From Candidatus Saccharimonadota bacterium (GTDB taxonomy: Bacteria; Patescibacteriota; Microgenomatia; UBA1406; GWC2-37-13), in the NCBI GenBank assembly GCA_001790095.1, contig MGBH01000001.1, positions 990,001-1,022,000 of the forward strand: a DNA stretch of 32,000 bases. Reading direction: 5' to 3'. Position 1 is the first letter of the stretch; each line of letters opens with the position of its first letter. The translations under genes and the position numbers were made by a program. The notes below the pieces were generated by a model, which ran no database searches, was not told the origin of the DNA, and saw only the letters and a list, made by a program, of their open reading frames with translations. Positions 7,398 to 26,352 of the stretch are shown here, piece by piece.

Positions 7398-7405
7398 GCA
7401 TTTTT

Positions 7406-8419: not shown

Positions 8420-8436
8420 AATAATGAATCAATCGC

Positions 8437-8509
8437 AAATGTCAAATCTCAAAACTCAAATCTTGTTATAGATTTACGATTTGAAATGTAGATTTGCCAT
8501 TTGACATTT
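8437..8509 (-). terminator. heptamer-repeat hairpin downstream of fbp (candidate terminator or RNA-stability element)
   Basis: Outer stem aaatgtcaaat (8437-8447) pairs with atttgacattt (8499-8509). Inner stem aaatct (8458-8463) pairs with agattt (8470-8475) around the loop tgttat. The arms are tandem CAAATNT heptamers. An A/T-rich stretch follows on the minus strand. Confidence 0.5.
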
Positions 8510-8524
8510 AAGATCTAAAATAAC

Positions 8525-9475: not shown

Positions 9476-10697
9476 AGGATTGGATTTTTTCTTTTGTTTG
9501 TAACACCTGGAGTTTGGTAAACATTGAGAGAAATTGTTTTTCTAGTGCCTCGCGAATCGGTTTTTTTTCTTCCTCGCTCAAACCCCATAACTCTTTTTTA
9601 AAGGGTCCGCATGCTTTTTTACGGGTTGTATATATAAATTGTTCATCGGTCTGTCCTTCTTTTCTCTCTTTAGCACAATTTTCTTTTAACCACGTATACG
9701 TCTTGTCTTTAAGGATCGTGGGTAAGTGTTCGTATATTGTATTTTGGAATCCGGTTGCCAAATGTATCTCAAGAGTCCTGGTCTCAGGGAATTTTCCGAA
9801 TAAAGCCTCGGGTAAAGTAGATGCGCCATGCTGTACTGCTCCACCGATAGCATACTCTTTCCTCCCCGCTTCACCAACCGTTTCAAGCACTCTAAAATCA
9901 AGTTTTACATCTGCAATTTTTCCATCGGGGAGTGGAATACCTCCGTGACTCGTTCCTGTCTGAACACTTACTTTACTGATTCCCCCCTTTGCCTTTGAAC
10001 TCTGTTTAAATCCGTTCATGAATGCCCTAAATTCTTCCACATTACTGTTTTTTCCGCCAATATGACCTATCTCTCCGCCGACTGAGACCATCACATTCAA
10101 AGGCTGTATTTGACGTATATAGTCGTGCAATAGCACGGTCATCTCATAATTATTTTTTTGTTGCTCATCGACCGTTGGTCGATCAAGGTCAACTAATGTT
10201 GAGGCATCAATGTCGATATTGTAGAACCCTGCCTCAACCGATGCTTTGACAAGCGTTTTAAGGGTATCAATTTCTTTTTGAGGATCGCTTGAATAAACGC
10301 TTCGTTTGAATTGATAGTGATCGCCTTGTAAAAAAACAGGGCCTTTATAGCTCTCTTTTATAGCCGCTGCCAACACTACAACCGCATATTCGTCTGGCTT
10401 TTGATCGGTATAGCTTTGCTCGCTACGTGCGATCTCCAAAATAAACGGGCCAATATTATTTTGGGTAACAAGTTTGAAGATAACTCGTGCGGTGTCGTAC
10501 GTCATAGCCCGTATATTTATGGCCGGCACTGTGAATCCACCCACCTTTCCTTGACCAATTGCGATATATAAATCATGAATTGAGGCAGGATAAATACCTT
10601 TTTCTTTTGCTAGACTGCGTATGCTATCTCGCGCCCCATTTTTTAACGTATCATCCGGAGAGAAAATCGCTTGATAAATGAGAGAGTCAATATCCAT
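9468..10697 (-). CDS. fba: class II fructose-bisphosphate aldolase family protein (long form)
   Basis: 409 aa. 'VPAINIR', 'LQGDH', 'IDIDAS', 'GEIGHIGG', 'TGTSHGG' and 'VQHGAST' occur in the order expected for class II aldolases. Confidence 0.8.
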   Translation of the reverse strand: MDIDSLIYQAIFSPDDTLKNGARDSIRSLAKEKGIYPASIHDLYIAIGQGKVGGFTVPAINIRAMTYDTARVIFKLVTQNNIGPFILEIARSEQSYTDQKPDEYAVVVLAAAIKESYKGPVFLQGDHYQFKRSVYSSDPQKEIDTLKTLVKASVEAGFYNIDIDASTLVDLDRPTVDEQQKNNYEMTVLLHDYIRQIQPLNVMVSVGGEIGHIGGKNSNVEEFRAFMNGFKQSSKAKGGISKVSVQTGTSHGGIPLPDGKIADVKLDFRVLETVGEAGRKEYAIGGAVQHGASTLPEALFGKFPETRTLEIHLATGFQNTIYEHLPTILKDKTYTWLKENCAKERKEGQTDEQFIYTTRKKACGPFKKELWGLSEEEKKPIREALEKQFLSMFTKLQVLQTKEKIQSYV

Positions 10698-11410: not shown

Positions 11411-12198
11411 TAAAACGTTGTCACAAAAAAGTCAGCTGGTATCTGCGGATAAGACTGAAACAGCTCTATTTTCTTCGTAACACCGGATGTGGTCTTTGCT
11501 TCAGAAGATATGGTCCTTCCTTGCGGCTTAAGAGCTGCTCCTTTAAATCCAAGTCTGCTTGGGCTGTTTACCACCCGAACTAGCAGGATTTTTTGCAAAG
11601 ATATACCGCTTAGAATAGTTTTATAGCCGAACTCAACGCCTTTGACAGTTTCTCCTGTCGGTGTCAGCGTAGTATCAGGATATGAAAAAATGGTATCACA
11701 ACTATTGGCAACATGTCTTGTCAAGGCATTGGTCGTATCAGCTATAAAAGTCAGCTCAAGAGCTGGACAGGTACTTTCTCCTTCTGTTTGTACGAATAAC
11801 TCAAGATTCCCACCTGACCAGGGATTGGAAAAAGTATTGGTCTCCTGATCATAATCGGTTAGATAAAACATATACTGCTCTCCCCGTTGTAAAAGAGGGG
11901 TGACAAACTCATCTCCGCCCCTTTCAATCACATCCGCCTGGCCTGTAATACCGGTTCCATCAAATGCAGGAAGCGAGCTTAAGGCTACTGTTGCTTTTGC
12001 CTGAATTGCTGCCTCAAGAGCAGCTTCAGCCGCAGCAAGGGCTTTTTGTGATTCCTCTTCTAGCTTGGTCATCTGGGTTTCGGTCGTTGAGGTAAAGGCA
12101 ATAGTCATCACAACCGTTATAGCAGTTGCCAACAACATGACGGTTATAAGTAATATTTGACCTTTTTGTTTAGCTTTTTTCATAAGTTTTTTTGTCAT
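11410..12198 (-). CDS. PilX-N-terminal-domain-like (type IV pilus minor-pilin-like) protein
   Basis: 262 aa. 'KGQILLITVMLLATAITVVMTIAFTSTTETQMT' followed by 'AAAEAALEAA' resembles the PilX_N pattern (R/K-G-x-x-L-hydrophobic helix, then ..AEaGl..). The ATG at 12198 lies inside repeat copy B. An alternative in-frame ATG is at 12183. Confidence 0.5.
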   Translation of the reverse strand: MTKKLMKKAKQKGQILLITVMLLATAITVVMTIAFTSTTETQMTKLEEESQKALAAAEAALEAAIQAKATVALSSLPAFDGTGITGQADVIERGGDEFVTPLLQRGEQYMFYLTDYDQETNTFSNPWSGGNLELFVQTEGESTCPALELTFIADTTNALTRHVANSCDTIFSYPDTTLTPTGETVKGVEFGYKTILSGISLQKILLVRVVNSPSRLGFKGAALKPQGRTISSEAKTTSGVTKKIELFQSYPQIPADFFVTTF

Positions 12199-12276
12199 TC
12201 CGGCGAAGGCCGGAATCTAGACTAAAATGTCAACTAATGTATTTATAGACTGGATCCCCGTCTTCACGGGGATGAC
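12194..12276 (-). repeat. 83-bp double-hairpin (MITE/REP-like) element, copy B (inverted relative to copy A)
   Basis: gtcattccggcgaaggccggaatctagactaaaatgtcaactaatgtatttatagactggatccccgtcttcacggggatgac. Differs from the reverse complement of 7315-7397 by a single base (caacTaatg versus caacCaatg). Located between the 1191-aa gene and the PilX-like gene. Confidence 0.9.
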
Positions 12277-12292
12277 AAATCGATATACAATT

Positions 12293-15200
12293 TTATTGTA
12301 TCTGTTTCCAATCATACATACTTATTGACAAATATGGCAACAAATCAAGATATTGACGTTGATCCATAGCGATAAACAATGATGGTCTTTGTAAATTTTG
12401 AAGTTGCCTTCCGTTTTCAAAGGTAGGCGTACCTGATTGATGAACAAGACCCCCTTTTATTTTAAGGGCAAGGTCTTCAGTATTGCCTGTTGTTACATTG
12501 TTGCCAATCAAAATCGCTTGCACCTCAGTGACAGTTGAGGAGATGGTAATATCTCTTGCAACGATCGCTATTGCAGCATTACCAACCGATGCGCTGTTTA
12601 AATCAATATTGATTCCAATCCTATTCTGATCAGCTACAAGAACAATTTTTTTGTTAACAAAATAAGATGAGTCGTTTATGTCTATGTCACTTCCCACATA
12701 ATAGATTCCATCTCCCACAATATCTGCAAGCTGCGTAATAGTCTTGTATTCCTTACGTGACTTCATATACTCTGCGTATTTTGTTGGAGTAAAGCTATGA
12801 AGCTGTATATAGGATGTGTTATACCAGTTAGGCTCTGAGTATTGAGTCGCATTTGGACCAAGTCTTAGATTGCCAGCACTTAAGATGCCACCTGCATTAT
12901 TCACAATAAGATATTTGTCAAGCGTATCGTCCGTATCTGAGTCTGTATATTTAAGCATGTTGTTGGGGATGATGCTTGACCTGCCAGATCTAAGATTGTC
13001 ATAAGAAACGTTACCCATCTTAAGCCACGATGAGGGAACAGAGAAAAATACAGGAATCGTTGGGACTACGCCGGGTGGCACAATGGGGGTTGGAGTAATA
13101 CTCCCTCCAAACGGTGTAGGGGTGGGAGGAAGCGGTGTTGCGGTTGGAATGGGTGTACTGGTTGGACTCACTTCTCCTGTTGGGATCGGAGTTAGAGTCG
13201 GACCGCCAGGAGTAACAGTTGGGATCGGAGTTAGAGTTGGACCGCCCGGAGTTATGGTTGGAGTCGGGGTCAGAGTTGGTCCGCCCGGAGTTATGGTTGG
13301 AGTCGGGGTCAGAGTTGGTCCGCCCGGAGTTATGGTTGGGGTTGGCGTTGATGTAGGGCCAACGGGTGTTGGAGTTAAAGTTGGCGTTGAAGTTGGAGCG
13401 TTAGTTGGGGTCGGTGTCAGAGTCGGACCGCCAGGAGTTATAGAAGGAGACGGAGTAGGACTCAAAAGACAGATTGTTATTATCTCAAGATACTCCCCTC
13501 CACATTGATTACTTTGACGCCAATCAACATTACCATAATCGCCATAAGTAGCAGAAAGAGTCATGTCAAAGCATGGCGGTATACAATCTCCTCCTTGATT
13601 ATCAACAATAAGGTTGCAACTATAGTTGGAGGGTGTTTTTGTACAAGTAGATGTGACACCAGGAGGTACGGTGACTTGTAGATCAAGCTGGTCCGGATCA
13701 ATATTCATACTTGTACTACAACTTGTACCTAAATCTTCAATATATTTTCCTTGGATATTGATAGTTGGATAGGGAGATGGAGTAGGTATGGTATAGATAG
13801 TAGTAGTCCAGCCTGAGGTATTGGTAAAACTATCCCGCGCCCTTACTCTCCCATAAAAAGTAGTTCCTCCTGGATATGATTGCTGAAGTGCCTGCTGTGT
13901 CGTATTGACCCAACTATTACTCCAACCTGAAGCAAGAGGACTATAGTCACTTTCTGTTGATACCTCTGATTGATATGGAAGAGCATTTAAACCACCACAT
14001 CCTCCATCGGTAGTTGTGTTCCATTTATAAGAGGCAAAATAATTTTCTCGGCAGTCAGGATCCGGATAAATGCTAACAAATGCTGCTCCACCTGGGGGAG
14101 TTGGAGCTGTTTGATCTATTGAAAGAGCGCGGCTTGGTGCAGGAATAGCAGGTGTCGTACATTTGATTGGAGCAGCTGTTGAACGTCCTCGTGCGCCCCA
14201 GTAATAAGTACCTGTACCAGTTACGCTACATGAGGCATAGCTAACAGGATTTGCGCTTGCAAGCCATCCGCTGTTACAACTCCACGGACTACCAAAACCA
14301 GTATCAGTATCTACTCCAAACTGTATCTGGTCTGAACAAGTATCATATGAGGCTGAAAGAGCGGGAATATTATTATAGCAACCTGATGCTGGCGACTGTC
14401 CGCTTACTCCACAGGTTGGAGCTATAAGATTATAGTTATATACTGTCGAACAGGTCTCTGCTGCTCCGTTTGAAGCACATATTTGAGCTGTCCCACTCCA
14501 TGCGCTTAGCGATATAGTATTATCCGTCCTTGCCGTATAGAGAATTCCTGTTTTTACTTCCACCCCGTTGATCAACAAACGGAATTGGTTGGTACGGGTT
14601 CCACATACGTATCCCCATCCTTGACTACACCCGTTGTTGTTATTGGGAAAGGTCCAGTCAACATCATACCGTTGAGTACAACCAGCCGCAGTATATAATG
14701 TCACTGAACTTACTACGGGTTGCAGGGGTGATGAATCAATACAGCAAGAACGTGAATCAGTTCCTCCACATGCAACTGAAGGAGAGCTACATGAACAAGC
14801 ACAGTTATTCTCAGCTCCAGGATTACAGGTTCGCTCTTCATTGCCGGTCCCACATGCAACACTACAAGAACCCCAGCTTCCCCAGCTTGCAGTACGGGTC
14901 GTACCAGCAGGAGTACATGTATCAACTCCTCCATTATAACCAGGTATCCATCCGCATGATGCACCAGTGCATCCGACATGCTGACCCGTACAGGTAAACC
15001 CAGCCCAGCTTGTTTGGCATCCGCTATACGGATAACTTTCTCCTGACTTTATACCCTGAAGAGCTTGTTCATAATAAGTGTCAGGACTTACGCTCACGTA
15101 GATGCTCGGTTGCGCCACCGGAGCAATAAACTGATCTCCTGCAGCGGGTGAATTCCAATCACCAAGTGGGCTTTTGTTTAATCGAACAGCGTATGCAGCA

Positions 15201-15868
15201 GCCCCAGCTAATGTATTCCAAGATATGGCAGCATTTGCTCCCCTTGTAGAACAGGAAACAACCACGTTGCTTGTACAGGGAAGTGGGGTTGGAGTGGGAG
15301 TGGATGTGGGGATGGGAGTAGATGTGGGGATGGGAGTGGATGTGGGGATGGGAGTAGATGTGGGGATGGGAGTAGAGCTGGGAGAAAAAACTGTAGGGAC
15401 GGGAGTAGAGCTGGGAGGAACTGTAGGAACTGGAGTATCTCCAGGCTCTTCAGTAGGACTCACACATGCATCACAACAACCAACTACCGAATTATCTCCC
15501 GATCCACCTATACATGGATAATAGGTACTATATTTAGTTGCACAATTACACAGTCCCCCTGGAACAGTTACTTCACAAACTGAAGAGCAAAGTATTGGAG
15601 AGTCACATCCATGAGTCACATTTGCACAATATCCAGTATCAACAGGCCCTATCCATTGACATGATTCGCAGCATATATCTCCAGGATGGTTCCAGCTATC
15701 ACCACTACAACTAGGTCCTCCTCCTACTCCACAATAACCCACTGGACAATCATAAGCAGCATGTAATAGTGTTGGTTTTATCACAAAAAAACTGAAAACA
15801 AATATGTTCACTATAATGAATAGCATTATTTGTTTATTGCTCTTGTTTTTAACACTTAAGATGTTCAT
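12293..15868 (-). CDS. large secreted/surface protein: Cys-rich N-terminal module, Pro/Thr tandem-repeat linkers, TSP1-like motif, unknown C-terminal domain
   Basis: 1191 aa. N-terminal anchor/signal 'IMLFIIVNIFVFSFFVI'. Dense Cys in residues ~40-135. (STPIPT)n and (TPTPTITPGGPTL)n repeats. 'SWGSWGSCSVACGTGNEERTC' at residues ~327-349. Confidence 0.6.
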   Translation of the reverse strand: MNILSVKNKSNKQIMLFIIVNIFVFSFFVIKPTLLHAAYDCPVGYCGVGGGPSCSGDSWNHPGDICCESCQWIGPVDTGYCANVTHGCDSPILCSSVCEVTVPGGLCNCATKYSTYYPCIGGSGDNSVVGCCDACVSPTEEPGDTPVPTVPPSSTPVPTVFSPSSTPIPTSTPIPTSTPIPTSTPIPTSTPTPTPLPCTSNVVVSCSTRGANAAISWNTLAGAAAYAVRLNKSPLGDWNSPAAGDQFIAPVAQPSIYVSVSPDTYYEQALQGIKSGESYPYSGCQTSWAGFTCTGQHVGCTGASCGWIPGYNGGVDTCTPAGTTRTASWGSWGSCSVACGTGNEERTCNPGAENNCACSCSSPSVACGGTDSRSCCIDSSPLQPVVSSVTLYTAAGCTQRYDVDWTFPNNNNGCSQGWGYVCGTRTNQFRLLINGVEVKTGILYTARTDNTISLSAWSGTAQICASNGAAETCSTVYNYNLIAPTCGVSGQSPASGCYNNIPALSASYDTCSDQIQFGVDTDTGFGSPWSCNSGWLASANPVSYASCSVTGTGTYYWGARGRSTAAPIKCTTPAIPAPSRALSIDQTAPTPPGGAAFVSIYPDPDCRENYFASYKWNTTTDGGCGGLNALPYQSEVSTESDYSPLASGWSNSWVNTTQQALQQSYPGGTTFYGRVRARDSFTNTSGWTTTIYTIPTPSPYPTINIQGKYIEDLGTSCSTSMNIDPDQLDLQVTVPPGVTSTCTKTPSNYSCNLIVDNQGGDCIPPCFDMTLSATYGDYGNVDWRQSNQCGGEYLEIITICLLSPTPSPSITPGGPTLTPTPTNAPTSTPTLTPTPVGPTSTPTPTITPGGPTLTPTPTITPGGPTLTPTPTITPGGPTLTPIPTVTPGGPTLTPIPTGEVSPTSTPIPTATPLPPTPTPFGGSITPTPIVPPGVVPTIPVFFSVPSSWLKMGNVSYDNLRSGRSSIIPNNMLKYTDSDTDDTLDKYLIVNNAGGILSAGNLRLGPNATQYSEPNWYNTSYIQLHSFTPTKYAEYMKSRKEYKTITQLADIVGDGIYYVGSDIDINDSSYFVNKKIVLVADQNRIGINIDLNSASVGNAAIAIVARDITISSTVTEVQAILIGNNVTTGNTEDLALKIKGGLVHQSGTPTFENGRQLQNLQRPSLFIAMDQRQYLDLLPYLSISMYDWKQIQ
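13188..13343 (-). repeat. 4 x 39-bp coding tandem repeat (TPTxTPGGPTLTP units)
   Basis: Units at 13188-13226, 13227-13265, 13266-13304 and 13305-13343. Units 3 and 4 are nearly identical. A partial further unit lies around 13408-13440. Confidence 0.85.
15296..15385 (-). repeat. about 4.5 x 18-bp coding tandem repeat (STPIPT units)
   Basis: gggagtRgatgtggggat repeated from 15296 (15296-15313, 15314-15331, 15332-15349, 15350-15367, then degenerate). Confidence 0.85.
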
Positions 15869-15877: not shown

Positions 15878-16687
15878 TCAATCAATTCTATTTACAGTAC
15901 TAAACAGCAATAGATTAGGATCCAAGACACCATTTTCTAGAAAGTTCATTAACGAAGTATGATAATTTGGATCTTCTAAAAAAGGCTTCATTACGTTTTG
16001 ATAGAAAACCCAATTAGAATCCATACCTCTAAGACTGGTAAATTGTAGTAAGATCATTACGTCTCCTCGTTGAGCGTTTGAAGTAAAAGGATGTGATTCT
16101 TCAATAAAGCTTTTCCACCAATTAAAATCTTGTAACTGTTCAGGGGTGGGAGCAAAAGTTATACCCGCCTGACTCATAAATGTCGTTGTGGCTTCTATCG
16201 TCTGTCCATTGATATATATTGTGCCATCAGAAGCTCTCACAACAAGGTTTTGCGCAAAATTGACAACCTGTCCATCTATAACATAACTACCTTGAAATCT
16301 AACCAGTGAGTCTCCTACTCTTTCCTCGTTTAAATATAGAGGTTCTGCCCCATATTCTGCTCCATGATAAAAAGCACGTATATTATACCAATCTGTTCTG
16401 TTGTCTCCGCTTTTGGTAGACGAGGCGAAAACATCTTTATATTTAGAACCAACCTTTATTTCAATCTGTTTGTTTAATGGCAATAATGTGAACTTTTTTT
16501 CTTCTTCCTTTTCGCGGATATACTGAACAAGCAGTATCATAATAAAGACAAATTCGATAAAAAAGATAAAGAAGAATAAAAAGAAAATAGGACTTGGTTT
16601 TTTACGCCTAGCGGTGCGAGAAATATCATTATGAAGCGGGTGATTTACAACCATATATTCATTATAACGCAACTGCAGAAAAATCAA
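15878..16687 (-). CDS. membrane-anchored protein carrying the shared ~177-aa C-terminal domain (paralogous to the C-terminus of the 801-aa lipoprotein)
   Basis: 269-aa track ORF that starts at TTG. The more likely start is ATG 16654 (MVVNHPL...), with TATAAT (16666..16661) 6 nt upstream. TM segment 'IFFLFFFIFFIEFVFIMILLV'. Residues 93-269 are almost identical to the C-terminus of the 17974..20379 product. Confidence 0.6.
   Translation of the reverse strand: MIFLQLRYNEYMVVNHPLHNDISRTARRKKPSPIFFLFFFIFFIEFVFIMILLVQYIREKEEEKKFTLLPLNKQIEIKVGSKYKDVFASSTKSGDNRTDWYNIRAFYHGAEYGAEPLYLNEERVGDSLVRFQGSYVIDGQVVNFAQNLVVRASDGTIYINGQTIEATTTFMSQAGITFAPTPEQLQDFNWWKSFIEESHPFTSNAQRGDVMILLQFTSLRGMDSNWVFYQNVMKPFLEDPNYHTSLMNFLENGVLDPNLLLFSTVNRID
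15899..16413. repeat. 515-bp direct repeat, copy 1 (partner 17998-18512)
   Basis: Constant offset of 2099 nt with no indels. 16015-16413 equals 18114-18512 exactly (399 bp, checked line by line). A ~62-bp patch (15954-16014) carries ~23 substitutions. The distal ~55 bp are identical again. Confidence 0.9.
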
Positions 16688-16712
16688 AGCTAAAAAATAC
16701 TATAATAAAACC

Positions 16713-18002
16713 ATGGTTAGTTATCTTCCAAAAACCATCTTTGTTTTGTTTTTTACCCTTATTTTTTTACTTGAGGGCCTATCTTTTAAAAAAGGAAGAG
16801 AGATCTCATATGTACTTATTTTGTGTATGCCGTCTTTTTTATTTTACCTTCATTTTATGTTTAAAAATAGAATAAAATTAAGCCCGTTTGTGGGGTTTGT
16901 CAGCGCCCTTTATATTGTGTTTGTTTCGTTGTCTGCTCTTTCCTCTAAACAAATAAACGTCTCTATTGAGGGCGTATTACTTACAATTGCAGTCGTCTCA
17001 CTTTTTATTTATTCTTCATACCATAGAGACGAATTACAAAACATAGTCCTTGCTATGATAATGATTTTGTCATTTGTTTTTATCAGTCGTCATGTTTTGT
17101 ACCGATTAATACCAATTGATTTTGGAGGTCTACTTACTTTATCAGCATTTCAGTTTTTTTACTCTTTTTATCCAAACCATAATCAGCTTGGGACTTTTTT
17201 AACTCTTCCAATAATTACATGTTTTTTTTATCTCTTTTTTACTGCACCTTCTGTAAAGACACCAACAAGTGAGTCGTTTATCAAAAAGACAATGTCGTGG
17301 CTTCTTACAAAAAAACATATATTACTTATACTCTTTTACTTTCCTTTTTTTATTTTTTCTTATTCCCGCTCGAGTTACAATTCCGTATTTTGGACCTTTA
17401 TCCTGATGTTGTTCTATAATAGAAAAATTCTTTTTTCAAACAATTTTTTTTCTAAGAAAAAGATCGTTTTTATTATTTTGTTTGGAATCATTGTTTTGCT
17501 TATGTTTTTTATCACTGTAGAAGAAGTAAAAAGTATTCCGATTATATCTTCTCTTCATGTATGGTTACAAAAATATGCAGGTCTCGGTGGAAAAAGTTTT
17601 CTCTCAGGAAGATTCTTAATGTTCTCTGACATGTTACAAAGAGCTGAAGGAAAATACTTATTAGGGCTCGGCAAACCTCTTATATACTCTCAATCATATA
17701 CTCTCCATACAAATATTGGGTGGCCATCCCATAGTCTGATAGTCGACATCATCGCAAAACAGGGTTTGTTAAGTTTTTTTGCTTTTGTATTACTTCATGT
17801 AGTTATATTTGTCAAATCAGATAAAAGAAGTGTTTTTTTCTATCTCTGGATCAACCTTTTCATTAATTTTCTTACAAATTGGAGCTACACATTCTATTCT
17901 TTATATTGTATATACTTTATCCTACCTGGATTGATCCCTGTTATCCTTTCTTCATCTACTCAAAATAAACAATTTATTCGATCATTCTACCCAATTGACT
18001 AA
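16713..18002 (+). CDS. polytopic membrane protein, O-antigen ligase/polymerase (Wzy_C)-like
   Basis: 429 aa with many TM segments. 'FSYSRSSY' and 'SGRFLMFSDML..GLG..WPSHSLIVDIIAKQGLLSFFAFVLL' resemble the Wzy_C pattern (SR..., R..w, G-x-G, aHN.yl..l.e.G..G). TATAAT at 16701-16706 lies 6 nt before the ATG. Confidence 0.5.
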   Translation: MVSYLPKTIFVLFFTLIFLLEGLSFKKGREISYVLILCMPSFLFYLHFMFKNRIKLSPFVGFVSALYIVFVSLSALSSKQINVSIEGVLLTIAVVSLFIYSSYHRDELQNIVLAMIMILSFVFISRHVLYRLIPIDFGGLLTLSAFQFFYSFYPNHNQLGTFLTLPIITCFFYLFFTAPSVKTPTSESFIKKTMSWLLTKKHILLILFYFPFFIFSYSRSSYNSVFWTFILMLFYNRKILFSNNFFSKKKIVFIILFGIIVLLMFFITVEEVKSIPIISSLHVWLQKYAGLGGKSFLSGRFLMFSDMLQRAEGKYLLGLGKPLIYSQSYTLHTNIGWPSHSLIVDIIAKQGLLSFFAFVLLHVVIFVKSDKRSVFFYLWINLFINFLTNWSYTFYSLYCIYFILPGLIPVILSSSTQNKQFIRSFYPID

Positions 18003-20379
18003 ACAGCAATAGATTAGGATCCAAGACACCATTTTCTAGAAAGTTCATTAATGAGGCATGATAAGTTTCATCATTTAAGAAGGATGCCATAAAATTTTGA
18101 TTGAAAGTCCAGCTAGAATCCATACCTCTAAGACTGGTAAATTGTAGTAAGATCATTACGTCTCCTCGTTGAGCGTTTGAAGTAAAAGGATGTGATTCTT
18201 CAATAAAGCTTTTCCACCAATTAAAATCTTGTAACTGTTCAGGGGTGGGAGCAAAAGTTATACCCGCCTGACTCATAAATGTCGTTGTGGCTTCTATCGT
18301 CTGTCCATTGATATATATTGTGCCATCAGAAGCTCTCACAACAAGGTTTTGCGCAAAATTGACAACCTGTCCATCTATAACATAACTACCTTGAAATCTA
18401 ACCAGTGAGTCTCCTACTCTTTCCTCGTTTAAATATAGAGGTTCTGCCCCATATTCTGCTCCATGATAAAAAGCACGTATATTATACCAATCTGTTCTGT
18501 TGTCTCCGCTTTCTTGAGAGGAGATAAAGACATTTTCAAGAGAATCCATACCCTGCTCTTCTGCCATTTCTTGCACTCTTGTTTCCCATAGCTTTGCGTC
18601 AGCTTCTCTAACAACCGATAAATCTGATAGAGCTATCTGAGATGTATCTTTAGGAGTTTGCACCCAGACTGATACATCACGATTTTGATCTACGAAAAAG
18701 GGGTTACTAAGACCAATGGTTATGTCTGCTTCTCCTTCTTGAATAATAGTTACAGAAAGTCCATCTTCTGAGATACGTATTGATCCATCAAATACCGCGC
18801 CTCCGGCAGAGGAAGAAAAACTCGCAAGCTCTGTCCTATCCACACTGCCCCCTCTTTTGCTGATAAACCCTTCGCTTTGCAATATCCAGTTTCCGTCTCT
18901 TTGCAAGAGATACAGCTTATTGCCCGATGATCCGTCTTGAGATGATATAAATACCAAACCGCTTTCATAGGATCCTTCTGTTTGCACTTCCATCTGTGCA
19001 TGCAAAGCTCTGTTTGGATTTGCATCAACAGTAAAACTACCAACCCCTGCACTTTCTCTATAGATAGTTGACTCCCCGATAAGCTGCTGCTCAACGACCG
19101 ATGGCGCATCAATCTGAGGGACTCCATCCAAATTACCCGTATACTCACTTATCGGCATATATGCTGCATGCTGTACTCCATCATTTTCATAGGTTACTAC
19201 AACAAACGTGTCACTGATAACACCTGTTGCTTGTATGACTACTCCCTCTGCTGGTGAGTTAAGTGAGTTTGCAAAAGAGTCAGGCATGTCATATATACGT
19301 AGTGTACCTGTGCTTGTCATCGTTTCAGCTACTTCTCCTGACTCTTGTGTTGATTCTTGTGTCGGTTGCCCTGCTACTGGCTGATCTGCGGCAACGAGCA
19401 TGATATCAGGATTTATACGGGTGACATTGACCCAACTCACCAAAGCTCCATCATTGTTATAATATCCAAGTATGATTTGAGTAGTGGAAGGATCACCGTC
19501 TCCTAAATTGTCATAGGTTAAATAAGGATGAGTGCCTGGCGGCGCCTCAACCACAGCAAGCTCAAGTAGATCATAATCTGTGGCACTTAAGCCCTGAGGT
19601 AAAAGTGATTGAAATGGAAAAAATGTTTGTGCGCTTTCATCCCAAACTTGCGGTAGGATAAAATTATTTGTACCTCTTTCAAAAAAAGCCATTGACCATC
19701 CATCCTGAGGCACTGAACGGGTTATGTAATAATAGTGCTGATCAAACCAACTCTGGATCGCATCATCTGAGGCAGGATCAACCTGTTCGTTTGGGTGAGC
19801 GATATTCCAATCCTGTACCAGCTTATTGGTCATCAGCTGTAGATATTGTGTTGCCAGCTGTGCTCTGTCGGCAGAATATTCTGGGTCCGAGGAATCAAAA
19901 ATGTGCGGTCTATCAGGATCATAATACGTATCAGAACTATCTATGTGTGATCCCATCCTGCTCACATTTACCCCATCAGGAATCGGTGCAAAATTGCTTG
20001 AGCTTGCTGGATATGCATAAACAAGTTGGCTTTCTGGAGTATTTGTTACAGTTGAAGTAGCTGTAGATTCTTGGGTATTAGTAGCGTGTAAAGTAGGCGT
20101 AGCCCTTTCTTGAGTTGAAGTAGCTGACGCTGTAACTGTGGGAGTAGCAGTATCAGTAGCTGTAGATGTAGATGTAGCTGTAGCTGTCTCAGTTTCGGGT
20201 GCTCCTGGACTTCCGCATCCTGCCAACACCAATGATGCTGCAGCAGGCATTGCCACTCTTGCAATAGGAGATCTCATTATCTGTCCACCATAAACAGCTG
20301 GCTTTACACCAGCTCCGTTTACGTTACTAATTGCACTTTTATCAAGGTTTTTTGAATGACGCGTATGCAACTCACCCAT
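17974..20379 (-). CDS. surface lipoprotein with Thr/Ser/Ala-rich linker and shared C-terminal domain
   Basis: 801-aa track ORF. The likely true start is ATG 20277 (MRSPIARVAMPAAASLVLAGC, lipobox LAGC), preceded by GGTGGA. Low-complexity 'ETETATATSTSTATDTATPTVTASATSTQERATPT' follows the lipobox. The last ~178 aa are shared with the 15878..16687 product. Confidence 0.65.
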   Translation of the reverse strand: MGELHTRHSKNLDKSAISNVNGAGVKPAVYGGQIMRSPIARVAMPAAASLVLAGCGSPGAPETETATATSTSTATDTATPTVTASATSTQERATPTLHATNTQESTATSTVTNTPESQLVYAYPASSSNFAPIPDGVNVSRMGSHIDSSDTYYDPDRPHIFDSSDPEYSADRAQLATQYLQLMTNKLVQDWNIAHPNEQVDPASDDAIQSWFDQHYYYITRSVPQDGWSMAFFERGTNNFILPQVWDESAQTFFPFQSLLPQGLSATDYDLLELAVVEAPPGTHPYLTYDNLGDGDPSTTQIILGYYNNDGALVSWVNVTRINPDIMLVAADQPVAGQPTQESTQESGEVAETMTSTGTLRIYDMPDSFANSLNSPAEGVVIQATGVISDTFVVVTYENDGVQHAAYMPISEYTGNLDGVPQIDAPSVVEQQLIGESTIYRESAGVGSFTVDANPNRALHAQMEVQTEGSYESGLVFISSQDGSSGNKLYLLQRDGNWILQSEGFISKRGGSVDRTELASFSSSAGGAVFDGSIRISEDGLSVTIIQEGEADITIGLSNPFFVDQNRDVSVWVQTPKDTSQIALSDLSVVREADAKLWETRVQEMAEEQGMDSLENVFISSQESGDNRTDWYNIRAFYHGAEYGAEPLYLNEERVGDSLVRFQGSYVIDGQVVNFAQNLVVRASDGTIYINGQTIEATTTFMSQAGITFAPTPEQLQDFNWWKSFIEESHPFTSNAQRGDVMILLQFTSLRGMDSSWTFNQNFMASFLNDETYHASLMNFLENGVLDPNLLLFSQLGRMIE
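17998..18512. repeat. 515-bp direct repeat, copy 2 (partner 15899-16413)
   Basis: See copy 1. Confidence 0.9.
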
Positions 20380-20418
20380 ATTTTTGAGATCGGAAAATAT
20401 AACCTATATTAATAGTAT

Positions 20419-20447
20419 ATTATCTCATAGTTTTGTCAAGCTGTCAA
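20419..20447 (-). promoter_or_regulatory. sigma70-type promoter, TTGACA-17 nt-GATAAT, upstream of the lipoprotein gene
   Basis: On the minus strand: TTGACA (20447..20442), a 17-nt spacer, then GATAAT (20424..20419). A second overlapping TTGACA lies at 20439..20434. Confidence 0.55.
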
Positions 20448-20493
20448 TGATTTTTCGCTTTCCAACGGTCTATACATAACAAATATGTATATG

Positions 20494-23400
20494 CTACATC
20501 ACGTTCTGAAACTGCATTTTTTGTAACATCTCCATGACTCTTTCATTCCAAATAGCGCCTTGTTGTGCGGGGGTTAGACTGGCGACTTTTCCTTCAATAT
20601 CTTCCAGTCTGAAAAAATAATACGCTTCATCCAACACGTCCTGGAAATCACTCCACATTTCCCGCTTCATTTCATCAGCCATAGCTTCTTTCCCCGCTCT
20701 CATCCTGTCTGGTAGATTCGAGGCTGCCTCTGTCACAGCAAGAACACCTGAAGGTAAAACCTGAATCTTTCCTCGGACATGAGGCGGGAGCTGAACCTGA
20801 GCTGTTCCTAGCTTGGCTACTGCAAGTCCTAATGGAGTTCGACCCTCAGCCATATGGATGCCATGAGATTCGCGCACGCGAGCTGGTAAAAACTCATCAA
20901 GCCATGATCCTGCAAAGGTGATTTGAGGTAATTTTAGACCCGCTTTTATAAGACTTTCTGACCCTCCTTGTGGAGGAGCGGGTTCAATAAGAATTTGCCC
21001 CTTGTGCGGATCTATTGTCTTTTTAACCGAGCGTTCTGACAGCTCCGTCATAACTCTCACATATTGGTCCAACTTCCCCATAAATGCCATCTGCCACTCA
21101 CGAAGCCGTACATCTTTGATACCTATGTCAAGCAATGCCCTTTTTCTTTCTTCCTCTTGAGCACGAAGGTGAATGAGGTGCTCTTGAAACAGCTCTGTTT
21201 GCGCTTCATTGTCTCCCTTGATAGCCTGTTTCCAAAGATATTCAAATCGTTTGAGGCGTTTTTCGTGGAGCATATCTGCTCCATAGGCCCATTGTGTCAG
21301 GGGCGGTATAGATATCCTATCTATTAAATAAGCATTAGCAGGATCTCTTATATCTTTTTCTGATAATATCAAGTGTCGTAATCCTGGAATATCGCCCCTG
21401 CCTACACGCTGCAATTCTTGCCAAAGCTCGCGCTCAGTTGTGGCTCCTGACACAAATACCTCAGGCCCTCCCCGATCAATCACAGCCTCTTCCAGATTGT
21501 CCAATTGAAAATCCCGACGCGTCATTTGGCTCGTGATGACGATCGTGCCTGCGGTACAACCTGTTAAGGCCTTTTGAAGCGAACCACGCTCTTCAAGCTC
21601 TTCAGATGCAGTCACGACCCGAAGCCATGGTGGCCTCTCTATAGGAAGAGCTACTTGTGAGCTATCTCCTAGTTTTATTTGACGAAGCACCCGAAGTGCT
21701 CTCGGCCCACTAATTTCACGTTCTGCTTCTTCCATACTAACTACTCTCTGCTCCACTGTGTCTTCCTTACCCTTACCCTTACTAAGAAGTAAAAGGTGTT
21801 TTAAGATTTCTTCCTCCCTTGCCTCCATACTTTCTTGATTAATGAGTATTGATCCAGATTCATTTAACATTTTGATCGCTTGTTCTAAAAGATGTGCCTC
21901 CTGTGCATCGCGCATGATAAAAAGACCAACTCTTCCTTCTCTTTGGATACGTTTTGCCTCTTGAAAAAGCCTAAGCATTTTTCTTTCCTCAGATACAAAC
22001 ATCACATCAGCCAATCCTCCATCTAGACAGGTGGTTTGAAGGGTGTCGATTTTGTGTTTTGGCTGTCTTACCTGTTCATGCCTTTCTATTCTCAACACCT
22101 CAGCCTCATAAATATCCGCATAAGAGGATGCTACAGGGATAAGAGAACCTGAGGTAAATCTCAGCTTTTTATATTGTTTAAAGAGCTCAATAGGCGCTAC
22201 ACTATTGGTCGTACGCGACACCTTCATCTCATTAACAACTCGGTCGTAAAGGAGTTGAAACTGCGCATTGTCAATCCCCCTTTCTTTTTTTTCGTCCTGC
22301 TCCCATATGTTTTTTAACCGCAAAAAGACTTCATGTAAACCCTCAAGTTGTCTCTTTTGAAGAGGAAAGCCGCTCTCATCAAGGAGCGTTGCTTCTTTAC
22401 CGCCCAGATACTGCTTCTGCTCCTCTGATGCAAAAACGGTTTCAAGGGCACATCTGATCATGTCTGCGTCCTGCTCAACTATCACGTGTCTTGTTTGTGT
22501 ACCTCCACTTTGCGGGTCGGTTGAAAACTTAAAATATGATTGATTAATCTTGCTTAATACATCCTGAAGAATAGCTGAGGCTCTGTTATATGCTCTTTCT
22601 GATAGTTTTATGTGATCTCCTGCTTTAAAATAGTCCCTACCCTCACCTTCTTCAAAAAGATCCTTATATTCATATAGAGCATCCCAAAAACTAATAAGTA
22701 TTTCTTGTGTAATCTCTTGTCTTAAATCAGAAGGCATTGTCTTTCTTTCGAAACCCTTTATTTCTTGCATGGTTCTATCTCTTAAAGAGGAGGGTTTTCG
22801 TTTTTTTCTAGATTTTCTTATTTCTTGCGCAAGCCTATTTCGTTCCTCAACAGGCATTATGTCTTGTTCTCTTTGAACCTCTCTTATTCCCATCCATTTA
22901 TCAATATATTCCCATGCTTTTGCTCCCTGGATCGTCTCACTTTGGATCCATGTCTCATGGGCACGATCAAGCATCTCATCATCTGCTTCCTGCACAAGCG
23001 CTATTCTCCCCTGTTTGCTGTAAAAACCCGGGTCAATGGCTGTCACAGTTTTACCTGGTTGATAGTATTGAGACGCATGATCAAGATAAGTAAAACCGAC
23101 AGCATCAGTGGTTGCATATAGTATGGTGCTGTCCCAAACTTCCTGATGAGCTTTCTTGCCTTTTTGGGGGACTAGTTTACCGTTTTTATATATATACTCC
23201 AACCTTGTCCCCACAGGATCTCCTCCCCTCTCATTTTCTTCAACAGATAGATCTGTAGCCACACCTACTCTTATCCCGAGTTTTTTTGAATAAAAATCTC
23301 CTATGTTTTCTGCATGCTCCAAAGCTTTTGCATAAGATTGTTCAAGGATATGAACTTTTTCTCCCTGAAGGGCAAACATTGCTGCGATAAGCGCATTGGC

Positions 23401-23919
23401 TTCTGTTTTTCCCTCTCCCGTATCAAGCTGGATACCCCTGTTATCTGTCTCAAGTTTGCCGAATATATACTCACCCTTATTCAAAAGCATCTGCGTCATA
23501 TAACAAAGCTGGTTGTCGCGAAACACAAACTTCTTTCCCCTTTCAGCGGCATGCTGCTCATACAAAGCAGCCATATAGGCAGTTGTATCTTCAGCCCATT
23601 GGAGCTCTTTTTCTCCCCCTTTTGGAATACTTTTCCATCCTTCCCTTAATCTTTCCGTCACTTTTTGTCGTTTTTCTTGTTTTATCGCGGTTTTTTTATA
23701 TTGACTACGTAATTCTTTTATGGTTGGAAGAGAGTAAGTATAAAATTCATCCTGCATTTTGCCTGACCTGTCAATTGAGGCGAGTGTGCCAAACCACCCT
23801 TCTGCAGTTCTTTTTTCTTGCCAAGAAAAAAAACCTTTTGTTTGAAAAGGGTCATAGACCTTGGAGCGTTTTCTTTGTGGGGATGGATCTCCTTGTAGTC
23901 CTGTCTCTACTACTTGCAT
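20494..23919 (-). CDS. highly diverged SecA-family (SecA-like / accessory-SecA-like) protein
   Basis: 1141 aa, colinear with SecA (consensus recalled from memory). The pairs below give this protein first and SecA second. 'LDTGEGKTEANALIAAMFALQGEKVHIL' versus MRTGEGKTL..YLNAL.GKGVHVV. 'ILYATTDAVGFTYLDH' versus ITYGTNNEFGFDYLRDN. 'ALVQEADDEMLDRAHETWIQS' versus [20 protein letters not shown]. 'LLDESGFPLQKRQLEGLHEVFLRLKN' versus IVDEFTGR.M.GRR.S.GLHQAIEAKE. 'TSQMTRRDFQL' versus TNMAGRGTDI. 'GRGDIPGLRHLILSEKD' versus GRQGDPGSSRFYLSLED. Several catalytic-motif residues are substituted. There is an extra ~130-aa N-terminal extension. Confidence 0.7.
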   Translation of the reverse strand: MQVVETGLQGDPSPQRKRSKVYDPFQTKGFFSWQEKRTAEGWFGTLASIDRSGKMQDEFYTYSLPTIKELRSQYKKTAIKQEKRQKVTERLREGWKSIPKGGEKELQWAEDTTAYMAALYEQHAAERGKKFVFRDNQLCYMTQMLLNKGEYIFGKLETDNRGIQLDTGEGKTEANALIAAMFALQGEKVHILEQSYAKALEHAENIGDFYSKKLGIRVGVATDLSVEENERGGDPVGTRLEYIYKNGKLVPQKGKKAHQEVWDSTILYATTDAVGFTYLDHASQYYQPGKTVTAIDPGFYSKQGRIALVQEADDEMLDRAHETWIQSETIQGAKAWEYIDKWMGIREVQREQDIMPVEERNRLAQEIRKSRKKRKPSSLRDRTMQEIKGFERKTMPSDLRQEITQEILISFWDALYEYKDLFEEGEGRDYFKAGDHIKLSERAYNRASAILQDVLSKINQSYFKFSTDPQSGGTQTRHVIVEQDADMIRCALETVFASEEQKQYLGGKEATLLDESGFPLQKRQLEGLHEVFLRLKNIWEQDEKKERGIDNAQFQLLYDRVVNEMKVSRTTNSVAPIELFKQYKKLRFTSGSLIPVASSYADIYEAEVLRIERHEQVRQPKHKIDTLQTTCLDGGLADVMFVSEERKMLRLFQEAKRIQREGRVGLFIMRDAQEAHLLEQAIKMLNESGSILINQESMEAREEEILKHLLLLSKGKGKEDTVEQRVVSMEEAEREISGPRALRVLRQIKLGDSSQVALPIERPPWLRVVTASEELEERGSLQKALTGCTAGTIVITSQMTRRDFQLDNLEEAVIDRGGPEVFVSGATTERELWQELQRVGRGDIPGLRHLILSEKDIRDPANAYLIDRISIPPLTQWAYGADMLHEKRLKRFEYLWKQAIKGDNEAQTELFQEHLIHLRAQEEERKRALLDIGIKDVRLREWQMAFMGKLDQYVRVMTELSERSVKKTIDPHKGQILIEPAPPQGGSESLIKAGLKLPQITFAGSWLDEFLPARVRESHGIHMAEGRTPLGLAVAKLGTAQVQLPPHVRGKIQVLPSGVLAVTEAASNLPDRMRAGKEAMADEMKREMWSDFQDVLDEAYYFFRLEDIEGKVASLTPAQQGAIWNERVMEMLQKMQFQNVM

Positions 23920-25051
23920 AGTTATTATTGTATACCATAGAGCCTTTATGAGCCAGGAGATTTTGATAATGATATAACATGTGTTTTGCGTGGTAGTTTT
24001 TTATCCGTCTCAAAGATTGATCCGCATAATAATCGCGGATATGTCTGTCTGAAATAATAGTTGACATGTGTTTGGCCAAGCTCTTACTGTTTTGCATGGG
24101 AAACAACAAACCATATTTATTTTTTCCCAGGATCTCCCCTGGACCATAAGGAGTATCTGAACTTATGACTGGCAAACCGTAGGACATCGCCTCAAGTATG
24201 GCATAAGGGTACCCATCCCAGAGTGAAGAATAGACAAAACAGTCAGCCTTTTTTAGCAGTCGTCCTACATCATGCTGCCAACCATAAACAACTATGCGTG
24301 ATGAGATGTTTAGCTCGTTGATTTCTTTAAGTATCTTGTTTTTGTCTTCTCCATCTCCTACAAGATATAAATATGCTCTGGAGTACTTTTTTGTTATGGT
24401 AGAAAACGCCTTTAAAATCGTTGCTATGTCTTTTTGAGGGGAGAAGCGTGAAATGGTGATAAATATAAAGTTCCTTGAAGGTGATTTTTTTCTCGTAGGT
24501 ATTCTTTTTGTACCGTTATATATAACTTTAATCTCATGTTTTGGATAAAAGTACTTCTCCAAACCGCTTTTAACCCCCTGGGAAACCGCTATATAGATAT
24601 CGCTCTTGTCGTGAAATATAAGTCTCCCGGCCACCTTTAATAAAGGTATTAATACAGAATTCGATTTTGTCTTAAAAACCATCTCTACATTATTATGAAA
24701 AGTAAAAATGCTCTGTTGAGGAAACCAATTTATAAGCTTAACCAATCTCCATAATAAGCCTGCATGAAAATCAACACAGAGTACTTTATCCGGCTTCTTC
24801 TTTTTAACAAGCGCACTTATTAATACTATTTCTTTACATAGCAAAAAGAGGTTGGAGGGGGTCAGTGCATAGAAGGACGGAAGACTCTTTTTTGAAATAT
24901 AGGTGATATTGTGCTTTATTTTGCTTTCAACAGGTGACGGAGAAGGCTCCAGACATACAGTATGAAACTCCATGCTTTTTATGTTTGTAAGCTCTAAGAT
25001 AAACGTTCCAGTACCGCCACTTACACTTTTTGTAATAGTAAGGACCATCAT
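23852..25051 (-). CDS. GT4-family (glycosyl transferases group 1) glycosyltransferase
   Basis: 399 aa. N-terminal 'SVSGGTGTFILEL'. C-terminal-half motif 'YPYAILEAMSYGLPVISSDTPYGPGEIL' is typical of GT-B/GT4 enzymes. The 3' end overlaps the SecA-like ORF start by 68 nt. Confidence 0.8.
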   Translation of the reverse strand: MMVLTITKSVSGGTGTFILELTNIKSMEFHTVCLEPSPSPVESKIKHNITYISKKSLPSFYALTPSNLFLLCKEIVLISALVKKKKPDKVLCVDFHAGLLWRLVKLINWFPQQSIFTFHNNVEMVFKTKSNSVLIPLLKVAGRLIFHDKSDIYIAVSQGVKSGLEKYFYPKHEIKVIYNGTKRIPTRKKSPSRNFIFITISRFSPQKDIATILKAFSTITKKYSRAYLYLVGDGEDKNKILKEINELNISSRIVVYGWQHDVGRLLKKADCFVYSSLWDGYPYAILEAMSYGLPVISSDTPYGPGEILGKNKYGLLFPMQNSKSLAKHMSTIISDRHIRDYYADQSLRRIKNYHAKHMLYHYQNLLAHKGSMVYNNNYASSRDRTTRRSIPTKKTLQGL

Positions 25052-25086
25052 GTGTAAATCATTGTATAATACAAATCGTTGATCTT

Positions 25087-26352
25087 ATGCATATAATATT
25101 TCTACTTTTAATCCTTGTTCTTAAACTTCCCTCATTTTACTTTCTGCCTTCCTCATCTTCCCTATTTACAAGCCACTCCCTAGTAAAAATAGGGGTCGTG
25201 CTTATTGCTATGTATATGTTGTACGATGAAAAAATTCGAAGAGCGGCAGGGCGAGCAGTTTTGTCAAACATGCCAATTATCCTTTTCTTGTTTTCGCAAT
25301 CAATCTCAGTCATATGTGCGAAAGATGTTGGATTGTTTTGGAAAAGTTACCATAATTTACTTATCAGCATCCTTATCTTTTTTAAGGCTGCGCTGTTGTT
25401 TGGAAAAAGAAGAAATCTTATTGTCCGTTTTTTATTTTTAGTTGCCATTATAACGACAGGGCTTGAAGTGGCTCTATATCTTGTCCCCAAAGATCTATTC
25501 AGACTCTTGCCTTTTCAGAGCGAAATCCTTGATGCCTTTATCGTTAATCTTGACCGCAACAGATTTTCATTTGAGTCTCATAATGAATTTTTACTTCTTG
25601 TTTTGTTGTTTGTTTCTTTTACTTCCTTGTCCAAAAAAAGGAGATTCGTTGGCCTGATCATAAGCGTAGTATTGATCGCTTTATCGTTTTATTCATCAAA
25701 TCGCACTCGACTCATTTCGCTTATGGGTGCGTTGATATTTTTTATAGTTTCTTTTTTCCATCTTCGTTTCATAAATCATAAGGGAAGATCTGCTAATATT
25801 GTCTTTACTCTTATAGCTGCTTTTGTCTTTGTATTTATTCTATTTCCTCCAAGAGCAATGTTTGAAAGAATTTTTGCTCCCTCTGAGTCCTCTGATTATG
25901 AAACGATTATTTTCCGTATCGATTCGATCAAACACTCTGCTTTACTTCTTCAATCTTCTCCCTTGCTGGGGGTTGGTCTTGGAAACTACCCCCTATATCC
26001 AGCAATACATAGATATGTCCCACCATATGAATTTGGCAAATCAGCTCAAAACAGATATGACAAAGCTGTTCCAGCCTCACCACACAATATATTTGCTCAA
26101 GTTGGTGCTGAGACAGGAATTGTTGGTTTGGGATCGTTTGTTTTCCTCATTTTCTGGTTTATCAGAAAAGACGTAGAGATGTGGCGAAAAGGTAAAGACA
26201 TAAAGATGGTGCTTTCGTTTTGTTCGTGGATTATATTCTTAACTTTTCTTTTCAACCCATCTCATACACTGTATATATCTGGATGGTTTTGGTTTTTAAG
26301 AGGAGTTATTTATTCTAAAAATCATTCAATCCCCTTGATCACAAAATCATAG
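25087..26352 (+). CDS. O-antigen ligase family (Wzy_C domain) membrane protein; PglL/WaaL-like
   Basis: 421 aa, polytopic. 'YSSNRTRLISLMGA', 'GVGLGNY' and 'SPHNIFAQVGAETGIVGLGSFVFLIFWF' match the Wzy_C signature well. TGTATAAT lies at 25063-25070 upstream. Confidence 0.7.
   Translation: MHIIFLLLILVLKLPSFYFLPSSSSLFTSHSLVKIGVVLIAMYMLYDEKIRRAAGRAVLSNMPIILFLFSQSISVICAKDVGLFWKSYHNLLISILIFFKAALLFGKRRNLIVRFLFLVAIITTGLEVALYLVPKDLFRLLPFQSEILDAFIVNLDRNRFSFESHNEFLLLVLLFVSFTSLSKKRRFVGLIISVVLIALSFYSSNRTRLISLMGALIFFIVSFFHLRFINHKGRSANIVFTLIAAFVFVFILFPPRAMFERIFAPSESSDYETIIFRIDSIKHSALLLQSSPLLGVGLGNYPLYPAIHRYVPPYEFGKSAQNRYDKAVPASPHNIFAQVGAETGIVGLGSFVFLIFWFIRKDVEMWRKGKDIKMVLSFCSWIIFLTFLFNPSHTLYISGWFWFLRGVIYSKNHSIPLITKS

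Follow-up and report, generated by a model that had tools for sequence, protein, structure and literature searches.

How do two different surface proteins come to end in the same domain, encoded by DNA that is in large part identical to the last base? The question is raised by a stretch of 32,000 nucleotides (nt) of contig MGBH01000001.1 (assembly GCA_001790095.1, positions 990,001 to 1,022,000), here called the window, whose coordinates are used throughout. A gene for a membrane-anchored protein of 258 amino acids (aa) and a gene for an 801-aa lipoprotein each close with a copy of one ~177-aa domain, and a gene related to those of O-antigen ligases lies between the copies. The answer proposed here, which we regard as probable, is that these are old paralogous C-terminal domains kept identical by intrachromosomal gene conversion, and that the direct repeat they form also permits a crossover that deletes 2099 base pairs (bp).

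The repeat has a simple anatomy. Copy 1 (15899-16413, minus strand) and copy 2 (17998-18512, minus strand) align without a gap over 515 bp each, at an offset of 2099 nt; these coordinates and this offset had been given by an earlier reading of the letters alone (the sequence-only reading), and were exact on realignment. A run of 54 nt with no differences (15899-15952 in copy 1, 17998-18051 in copy 2) is followed by a diverged patch of 62 nt (15953-16014 and 18052-18113) with 22 substitutions, representing 10 base-change types in the alignment of the coding minus strand, and then by a core of 399 nt that again has no differences (16015-16413 and 18114-18512). The lengths proposed earlier (399, about 62 with about 23 substitutions, and about 55) were right to within one. 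At the rate seen in the patch, ~160 differences are expected in the remaining 453 nt, and 0 are observed. The chance that all 22 differences would fall inside one 62-nt stretch of 515 is ~1e-18. Tracts of 399 and 54 nt with no change, set against 22 of 62 in the patch, are far above background in identity and have sharp borders, i.e. they form the mosaic by which gene conversion is recognized. Otherwise the only long repeats in the window are an inverted pair of 84 nt and tandem arrays coding for Pro/Thr.

Both copies are in frame and represent the 3' parts of their genes, each specifying the C-terminal ~177 aa of its protein: copy 1 corresponds to residues 82-252 of the 258-aa protein and copy 2 to residues 624-794 of the 801-aa protein. 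The final 6-7 residues are unlike (TVNRID in the 258-aa protein and QLGRMIE in the 801-aa protein). Between the copies is a spacer of 1584 nt, which contains the whole of a 429-aa gene, a divergent intergenic region of 58 nt and 81 N-terminal codons of the 258-aa gene. The shorter carrier is encoded at 15878-16687 (minus strand) if translation is taken from TTG at 16687, which yields 269 aa. This start is absent from public records and was set aside; the databases use the ATG at 16654, which yields 258 aa. The longer carrier is encoded at 17974-20379 (minus strand), with M35 (20277) as the likely true start. That one carrier is anchored by a transmembrane segment and the other is a lipoprotein, as first proposed, is upheld: the 258-aa protein has a single hydrophobic segment (residues 19-48, 258-aa numbering) and a short linker ahead of the shared domain, and the 801-aa protein from M35 reads MRSPIARVAMPAAASLVLAG up to C55, with a lipobox, LAG before C55, that was read directly from the sequence and fits the pattern [LVI][ASTVI][GAS]C. 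Residues 35-57 also give a weak NCBIfam match to a lipoprotein-signal model. The lipoprotein signal is followed by a Ser/Thr-rich linker, a unique region of ~500 aa for which database searches found no homologues, and the shared domain. Both carriers are predicted to expose the shared domain outside the membrane.

Which is older, the duplication or the identity? The patch consists of 21 codons. Thirteen of them differ between copies, 10 of these with a change of amino acid, and 11 of the 21 residues are kept. Nei-Gojobori counts on these 21 codons give a proportion of synonymous differences (pS) of ~0.70, which is saturated, and a proportion of nonsynonymous differences (pN) of ~0.28; pN/pS is about 0.4, and the corrected ratio, dN/dS, is about 0.17. 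Similarity does not stop at the repeat ends. Upstream of the core it continues in diverged form for ~8 codons (DVFASSTK versus NVFISSQE, 14 of 24 nt), and weak similarity extends beyond the other end up to the stop codons. The substitutions in the patch mark it as part of paralogues that diverged long ago and are under purifying selection, and not as a product of recent hypermutation or diversifying selection. Since synonymous sites in the patch are saturated and homology runs past the repeat ends, the duplication is old and the overwriting of 399 and 54 nt recent. This is homogenising gene conversion, either as two events or as one event with a patchy tract. The sequence-only reading had proposed recent gene conversion or recombination instead of an old duplication. 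The mosaic bears out the first part. The second has to be given up, as the saturated patch, a pN/pS well below 1 and the homology past the ends place the conversion on top of an old duplication.

Might the patch have been made different, and not been left different? After a recent duplication of 515 bp, hypermutation confined to the patch, or diversifying selection on it, could have set in, for example through a diversity-generating retroelement or another targeted mutator, and the tight clustering of differences near the C-terminus, a frequent site of such variable regions, would fit. The 10 substitution types, however, are not adenine-specific, and saturated synonymous sites with the pN/pS found here are the opposite of what diversifying selection leaves behind. 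Nor was a reverse transcriptase found in the window. Across all the assemblies the patch has only two versions, that of copy 1 and that of copy 2. A targeted mutator is thus given very little weight, and a diversity-generating retroelement in particular was rejected on the substitution spectrum and the lack of a reverse transcriptase in the window.

Is the second copy itself real? An exact repeat of 399 nt exceeds the length of short reads, many contigs break inside the repeat and one contig lacks the spacer altogether, all of which might point to a mis-join or to duplicated contig ends. The public assemblies speak against this. Sequence identical to the window is found in genomes of uncultured Candidatus Roizmanbacteria of the Rifle aquifer (groundwater), e.g. 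GCA_001790195.1, contig MGBN01000001.1, of 1.2 Mb. The two-copy arrangement, with the same repeat sequences, recurs on contigs of at least seven separate records from three sources (ENA, NCBI and JGI), including single-contig 1.2-Mb genomes. The 801-aa gene could be read on 18 contigs, the 258-aa gene on 24, and the 429-aa gene is listed in 37 collection blocks; on every fetched contig that spans both copies, order and repeat sequences are the same. Of the shorter contigs, six stop within one of the copies, L004 at 16301 and L013-L017 at 18240, 18215, 18196, 18078 and 18051, and the 429-aa gene also occurs in nine blocks with contigs of <2 kb, which is the assembler behaviour expected at a true repeat. 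An assembly artefact, for which the sequence-only reading had asked that other data be consulted, is therefore extremely improbable, because at least seven records have the arrangement, both copies have unique flanks on each side, both are in frame in different long open reading frames (ORFs) and the 62-bp patch distinguishes them.

If the repeat recombines, are recombinant forms to be found? Variants were sought by listing the members of two protein clusters, those of the 258-aa and the 801-aa proteins. An exact-DNA scan of the metagenome_contigs collection for the repeat core gave 0 matches, the collection being evidently without these samples; the JGI contigs were reached by the protein index. 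Two forms stand out. The first, P0048, is an 800-aa protein on L018, a 113-kb JGI contig (3300025117), and joins the N-terminus of the 801-aa protein and the core to the patch and tail (TVNRID) of copy 1. Over both flanks L018 runs collinear with the window at 100% identity; exactly 2099 bp are absent. The Wzy-like gene (the 429-aa gene) is gone, as are the start of the 258-aa gene and the 58-nt intergenic region, and the 1191-aa gene found downstream begins 9 nt after the hybrid gene. L018 has the form of the predicted deletion product, for which the crossover would lie inside the 399-nt core. The loss of the O-antigen-ligase-like gene by recombination between the repeats, a consequence foreseen in the sequence-only reading, is thus represented by a junction in a public contig, which is a candidate allele. 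The swap of C-terminal tails foreseen with it is found in P0048, which carries the copy-1 tail, but the claim is reduced in scope, as the swap alters only the 21-codon patch and the final 6-7 residues.

The second form, P0001, is a 258-aa protein on L008, an ENA contig (ERZ909576) of 1440 nt. Copy-1 flanks are present on both sides, and 22 of 22 patch positions are of the copy-2 type, such that the whole 515 bp is that of copy 2. L008 would represent a longer conversion tract. The final k-mer (127) given in the contig label is longer than the 54-nt block that the copies share, which, we presume, argues somewhat for real reads across the junction. L018 and L008 each have roughly an even chance of being a real allele.

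The existence of L008 also brings up a different order of events. The two copies might first have been homogenised in full, with 515 bp identical as in L008, and the copy-1 patch imported later by recombination, either with a diverged allele of another strain or with a third paralogue that has not been seen; the patch would then be inserted foreign sequence and no relic. The existence of a contig whose copy 1 is fully identical, and the sharp borders of the patch, are consistent with this. L008, however, may be an artefact. No third paralogue or diverged allele was present in 5.8 billion protein clusters, in 1.84 billion representatives or in three contig collections, and the diverged homology outside both repeat ends fits an old local paralogue. 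An imported patch is unlikely, although it is the least improbable of the alternatives.

Returning to old paralogues homogenised by conversion, the steps can be put as follows. Two adjacent genes on the same strand would encode surface proteins whose C-terminal ends are paralogous versions of a single ~177-aa domain. The domain would have been duplicated long ago, and more recently 399 bp and 54 bp of one copy would have been overwritten by the other, through homologous recombination within the chromosome, presumably gene conversion of the RecA type. The 62-bp patch would then be an unconverted relic between the overwritten tracts, and the 3' ends of the genes would be in concerted evolution. 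As a direct repeat, the 515 bp could also serve as the substrate of a crossover, by which the 2099-bp unit would be lost together with the WaaL/Wzy_C-like gene and the promoter and N-terminus of the short protein. Such a crossover would fuse the 801-aa body to the copy-1 patch and tail and place the hybrid gene directly upstream of the 1191-aa gene. We infer the recombination pathway, the reality of the two variant contigs as alleles and any function from these patterns.

Several points weigh against this account. The assemblies represent one nearly clonal population from one site, and the reproducibility of the arrangement is not fully independent; they are 99.7-100% identical, with no single-nucleotide polymorphism (SNP) in either repeat, and a near-clonal population means that they are replicate views of one genome and not independent lineages. 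(For the same reason, the 99.7-100% identity and the lack of SNPs in the repeats, an attempt to date the conversion by population variation was dropped.) The estimate for the patch has no more than 21 codons behind it. The classic sign of concerted evolution, paralogues that cluster by genome and not by locus across species, presupposes orthologues, and none of the domain was found in any collection searched. L018 could be an assembler collapse of a 399-bp exact repeat longer than the reads, and L008 is short and could be a low-coverage chimera.

Does the locus vary its surface? That both variant contigs are real, and that one 515-bp repeat has given rise to a standing polymorphism in a free-living population of an uncultured bacterium of the Candidate Phyla Radiation (CPR), is a tentative proposition that we consider rather doubtful. 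If it were true, some cells would carry two surface proteins and a WaaL-like enzyme, and others would have lost the enzyme and have the lipoprotein fused to the other tail; further cells would carry a swapped patch. The deletion would also change how the 1191-aa adhesin-like gene downstream is transcribed. Such a locus would amount to a simple means, driven by recombination and built on a domain without known relatives, of varying the cell surface or its glycans, perhaps under pressure from phages or from attachment to a host.

A programmed and reversible variation is another matter. In this scheme, site-specific excision and integration, or a swapping of cassettes, would switch the Wzy-like gene and the tails on and off; deletion and converted alleles may co-exist in the aquifer, and surface and glycan functions are encoded at the locus. 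Neither a recombinase nor an invertase or a reverse transcriptase was found among the window ORFs scanned or in the precomputed Pfam annotation of the locus, however, and there is no recombinase gene in the ~10 kb of publicly annotated flank. The repeats are direct, long and coding, without short core sites, and a distant syntenic locus has no such repeat. A deletion would moreover be irreversible unless a circle or a donor were kept. A programmed switch is highly unlikely, and the suggestion in the sequence-only reading that the repeats could act as a surface-variation mechanism is, for a dedicated mechanism, not supported on these grounds: the deletion is a one-way loss and not a switch.

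What is the gene that the repeats bracket? It lies at 16713-18002 on the plus strand and encodes a 429-aa polytopic membrane protein, a divergent member of the WaaL/Wzy_C superfamily by its homologues, by hhalign and by fold match, with about 11 hydrophobic segments. Transcribed away from the 258-aa gene and towards the 801-aa gene, the gene overlaps the 3' end of the latter by 29 nt; its final 5 nt lie inside copy 2. The protein itself has no Pfam match, even at an expectation value (E) of <= 10, and so does not reach the gathering score of PF04932. All four of its homologues match PF04932, however; they are 25-29% identical to the 429-aa protein over >90% coverage (E 1.7e-22 to 5.7e-8), and the best PF04932 match among them has E 1.3e-18. 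A comparison by hhalign of the 429-aa family profile with a bona fide Wzy_C protein encoded at 25087-26352 gave 93.5% probability. The structural model is of moderate quality, with a predicted local distance difference test (pLDDT) score of 67, and its best fold match in PDB is the WaaL O-antigen ligase 7TPG, at a template-modelling score of only 0.44-0.46. Among the motifs, SYSRS (R219) is kept, SHN has become SHS, E.G has become KQG, and GVGPGNF is degenerate (GLGKPLIY). The description as Wzy_C-like, used in the sequence-only reading, is a fair one for a distant relative that is itself below the Pfam threshold; the sequence is divergent and enzyme activity is uncertain.

Other differences among assemblies were seen in these genes. 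The protein cluster of the Wzy-like protein, P0002, has three member sequences. In L020 (JGI 3300025154), a 28-bp deletion at ~17201-17228, between TTTTTT microhomologies, shifts the reading frame of the Wzy-like gene to give pieces of 171 aa and 236 aa; if real, this suggests that the gene is dispensable. In L019 (ENA ERZ909579), a 2-bp deletion at ~19421-19422 shifts the frame of the 801-aa gene and leaves a product of 323 aa (P0047), which may be a real null allele or an error of sequencing or assembly. Taken together, and if real, the two frameshifts suggest relaxed selection on the Wzy-like and 801-aa genes.

Where did the shared domain come from? No relative was found in about 15 billion proteins. 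A word-indexed search of the 5.8 billion clusters matched only the short protein's own cluster, and a full HMMER scan of the 1.84 billion representatives matched that cluster and 39 other proteins. The 39 were rejected as homologues of the domain, as they match over a stretch of only ~40 aa (QGSYVIDGQVVNF...DGTIYINGQTI), by way of their own tandem 'QGSYxLTGQAxxF' repeats; a Pfam scan of seven of the 39 gave nothing informative for that repeat. A search against PDB sequences gave nothing, and Pfam, NCBIfam and PHROGs gave only weak matches below threshold. Scans of genome, metagenome and viral contigs also gave nothing. The single-sequence AlphaFold2 model of the domain has a pLDDT of 38.6 and is unusable. 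The domain, presumably extracellular, is confined so far to the present species. The short stretch is an observation in its own right: at 18240-18380 (residues ~43-90 of the domain query) the domain has one to two copies of a motif, QGSYVIDGQVVNF and DGTIYINGQTIEA, and the same motif forms long 'AAQGSYxLTGQAVxF' tandem arrays, with up to 13 matched stretches, in the 39 otherwise unrelated proteins.

A distant syntenic locus (L006/L007) offers a view of what is kept and what is not. The Wzy-like, GT4, Wzy_C and 293-aa genes are kept, the surface proteins around the Wzy-like gene are mutually unrelated, and there is no such repeat. The shared-domain arrangement is therefore lineage-specific, since both the repeat and related surface proteins are lacking there, and the idea that the domain is a conserved feature of such loci was rejected on the same evidence. 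As far as can be read from gene order, the glycan locus is conserved and the flanking surface proteins turn over quickly. In L006 (Logan SRR21621036), positions 3950-10382 correspond to window positions 16713-27203, with the Wzy-like, GT4 and Wzy_C genes and that for a 285/293-aa protein (36% identity) in unchanged order. The Wzy-like gene is flanked there by unrelated surface-protein genes instead, including one for an 807-aa protein with a weak SdrD_B match.

The surroundings of the repeats are of some interest as well. The divergent intergenic region (16655-16712, 58 nt, 24% G+C), between the 258-aa and Wzy-like genes, is presumably the shared promoter region of both, as its consensus matches would suggest. 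Upstream of the 801-aa gene, the best promoter candidate is at 20419-20447 (minus strand; TTGACA-17-TG-GATAAT, 11/12), again by consensus match only. The body of the 801-aa gene is higher in G+C. A foreign origin, which this had suggested, was rejected, as G+C at third codon positions is alike (0.27-0.38) in the shared domain, both unique parts and the neighbouring genes; the higher G+C is due to amino-acid composition. The stop codon of the 258-aa gene lies 9 nt ahead of the start of the 1191-aa gene (12293-15868, minus strand), immediately downstream of copy 1, which encodes a Cys-rich and Pro/Thr-rich secreted protein; a PilX_N-like gene is found further downstream. On the other side, upstream of the 801-aa gene, are genes for a 1141-aa protein with a SecA-type DEAD domain and for a GT4 glycosyltransferase, and a second Wzy_C gene. 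The presence of Wzy_C-type enzymes and a GT4 glycosyltransferase nearby suggests a locus for a surface glycan or glycoprotein.

Three neighbouring features may be added as side observations. The 1141-aa protein (20494-23919, minus strand) has its SecA-type DEAD motor domain, PF07517, at 54.6 bits, spread over residues 89-589; its score is far below the NCBIfam SecA family cut-offs and it has no PDB sequence match. Its gene, located between the GT4 glycosyltransferase gene (with a 68-nt overlap) and the Ser/Thr-rich lipoprotein gene, is missing at the distant locus L006, and no SecY-like gene was seen. The combination of a SecA-like protein, GT4 and a Ser/Thr-rich lipoprotein is, we take it, reminiscent of accessory-Sec glycoprotein export loci. 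In the 1191-aa gene, tandem arrays at 13179-13481 (also 15270-15382), with periods of 39 nt and 18 nt, encode Pro/Thr-rich linkers. The 39-nt array differs by one unit among assemblies (1178 versus 1191 aa) and has 10 clustered SNPs at 13238-13280, which suggests exchange of repeat units or, alternatively, assembly noise. Finally, the 84-nt element (GTCATTCCGGCGAAGGCCGGAATC...GGATCCCCGTCTTCACGGGGATGAC) occurs twice in inverted orientation and 99% complementary, at 7314-7397 and 12194-12277. Both copies are intergenic, one in the GAPDH/PGK gap and the other in the gap between the 1191-aa and PilX-like genes, and 4.8 kb is bracketed by them. Within the element are two G+C-rich hairpins, and its ends are themselves inverted; by its form it looks like a miniature inverted-repeat transposable element, a repetitive extragenic palindromic element or a shared terminator. 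Rfam gave no match, and the 4.8-kb segment was not seen inverted in the other assemblies.

What does the locus add? Gene conversion of paralogues is a well-known, textbook process, of which the present case is a new example that opens no new question. It indicates that ordinary homologous recombination, i.e. gene conversion and probably deletion between repeats, acts in a CPR genome of 1.2 Mb; among the literature matches listed, there was no paper linking CPR bacteria with gene conversion. The recombining locus is one that builds the cell surface, and in these episymbionts attachment and contact with phages take place there. It marks a concrete candidate for a structural polymorphism, and the point worth following up is whether the aquifer population really holds the deletion and conversion alleles. 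It also draws attention to a domain of ~177 aa, presumably extracellular, that is without relatives among the proteins searched.

How does this compare with known systems? The closest case is found in Helicobacter pylori, where the 3' segments of the outer-membrane protein paralogues babA/babB and homA/homB undergo concerted evolution, most probably through RecA-dependent recombination inside the genome, and chimeric genes arise by gene conversion (PMC3960876, citing Pride & Blaser 2002). There, likewise, the 5' and middle parts differ and the 3' ends are near-identical within a genome. The H. pylori loci are distant from one another, however, and are members of a large family of which every strain has orthologues, and experiments have shown the process, whereas the present one is known from sequence alone. 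Here there are only two copies, and they are direct repeats 2.1 kb apart, such that a crossover would also delete the spacer. The N-terminal parts here are in addition unrelated proteins, and the domain is without known relatives. In Brucella, omp2a and omp2b are described as porin genes, paralogous and adjacent, between which gene conversion exchanges segments (PMC7050475). They resemble the present locus in being two linked envelope-protein paralogues with mosaic identity tracts that result from gene conversion. Exchange deletes nothing in the omp2 pair, whose members are paralogous over their full length and oppositely oriented; the present genes differ from them in having only the C-terminal domain in common and in being in direct orientation.

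Long direct repeats in bacteria undergo RecA-dependent deletion or duplication between the copies. The present repeat, 515 bp with 399 bp exact, flanks a 1.6-kb spacer in a similar way, and L018, possibly by assembly collapse, has an exact deletion of one unit. In Borrelia vlsE and Neisseria pilE/pilS, many silent variable cassettes diversify one expression site. The present locus is like these in the segmental gene conversion of surface-protein genes, and unlike them in that there is no cassette array and that conversion makes two expressed genes alike.

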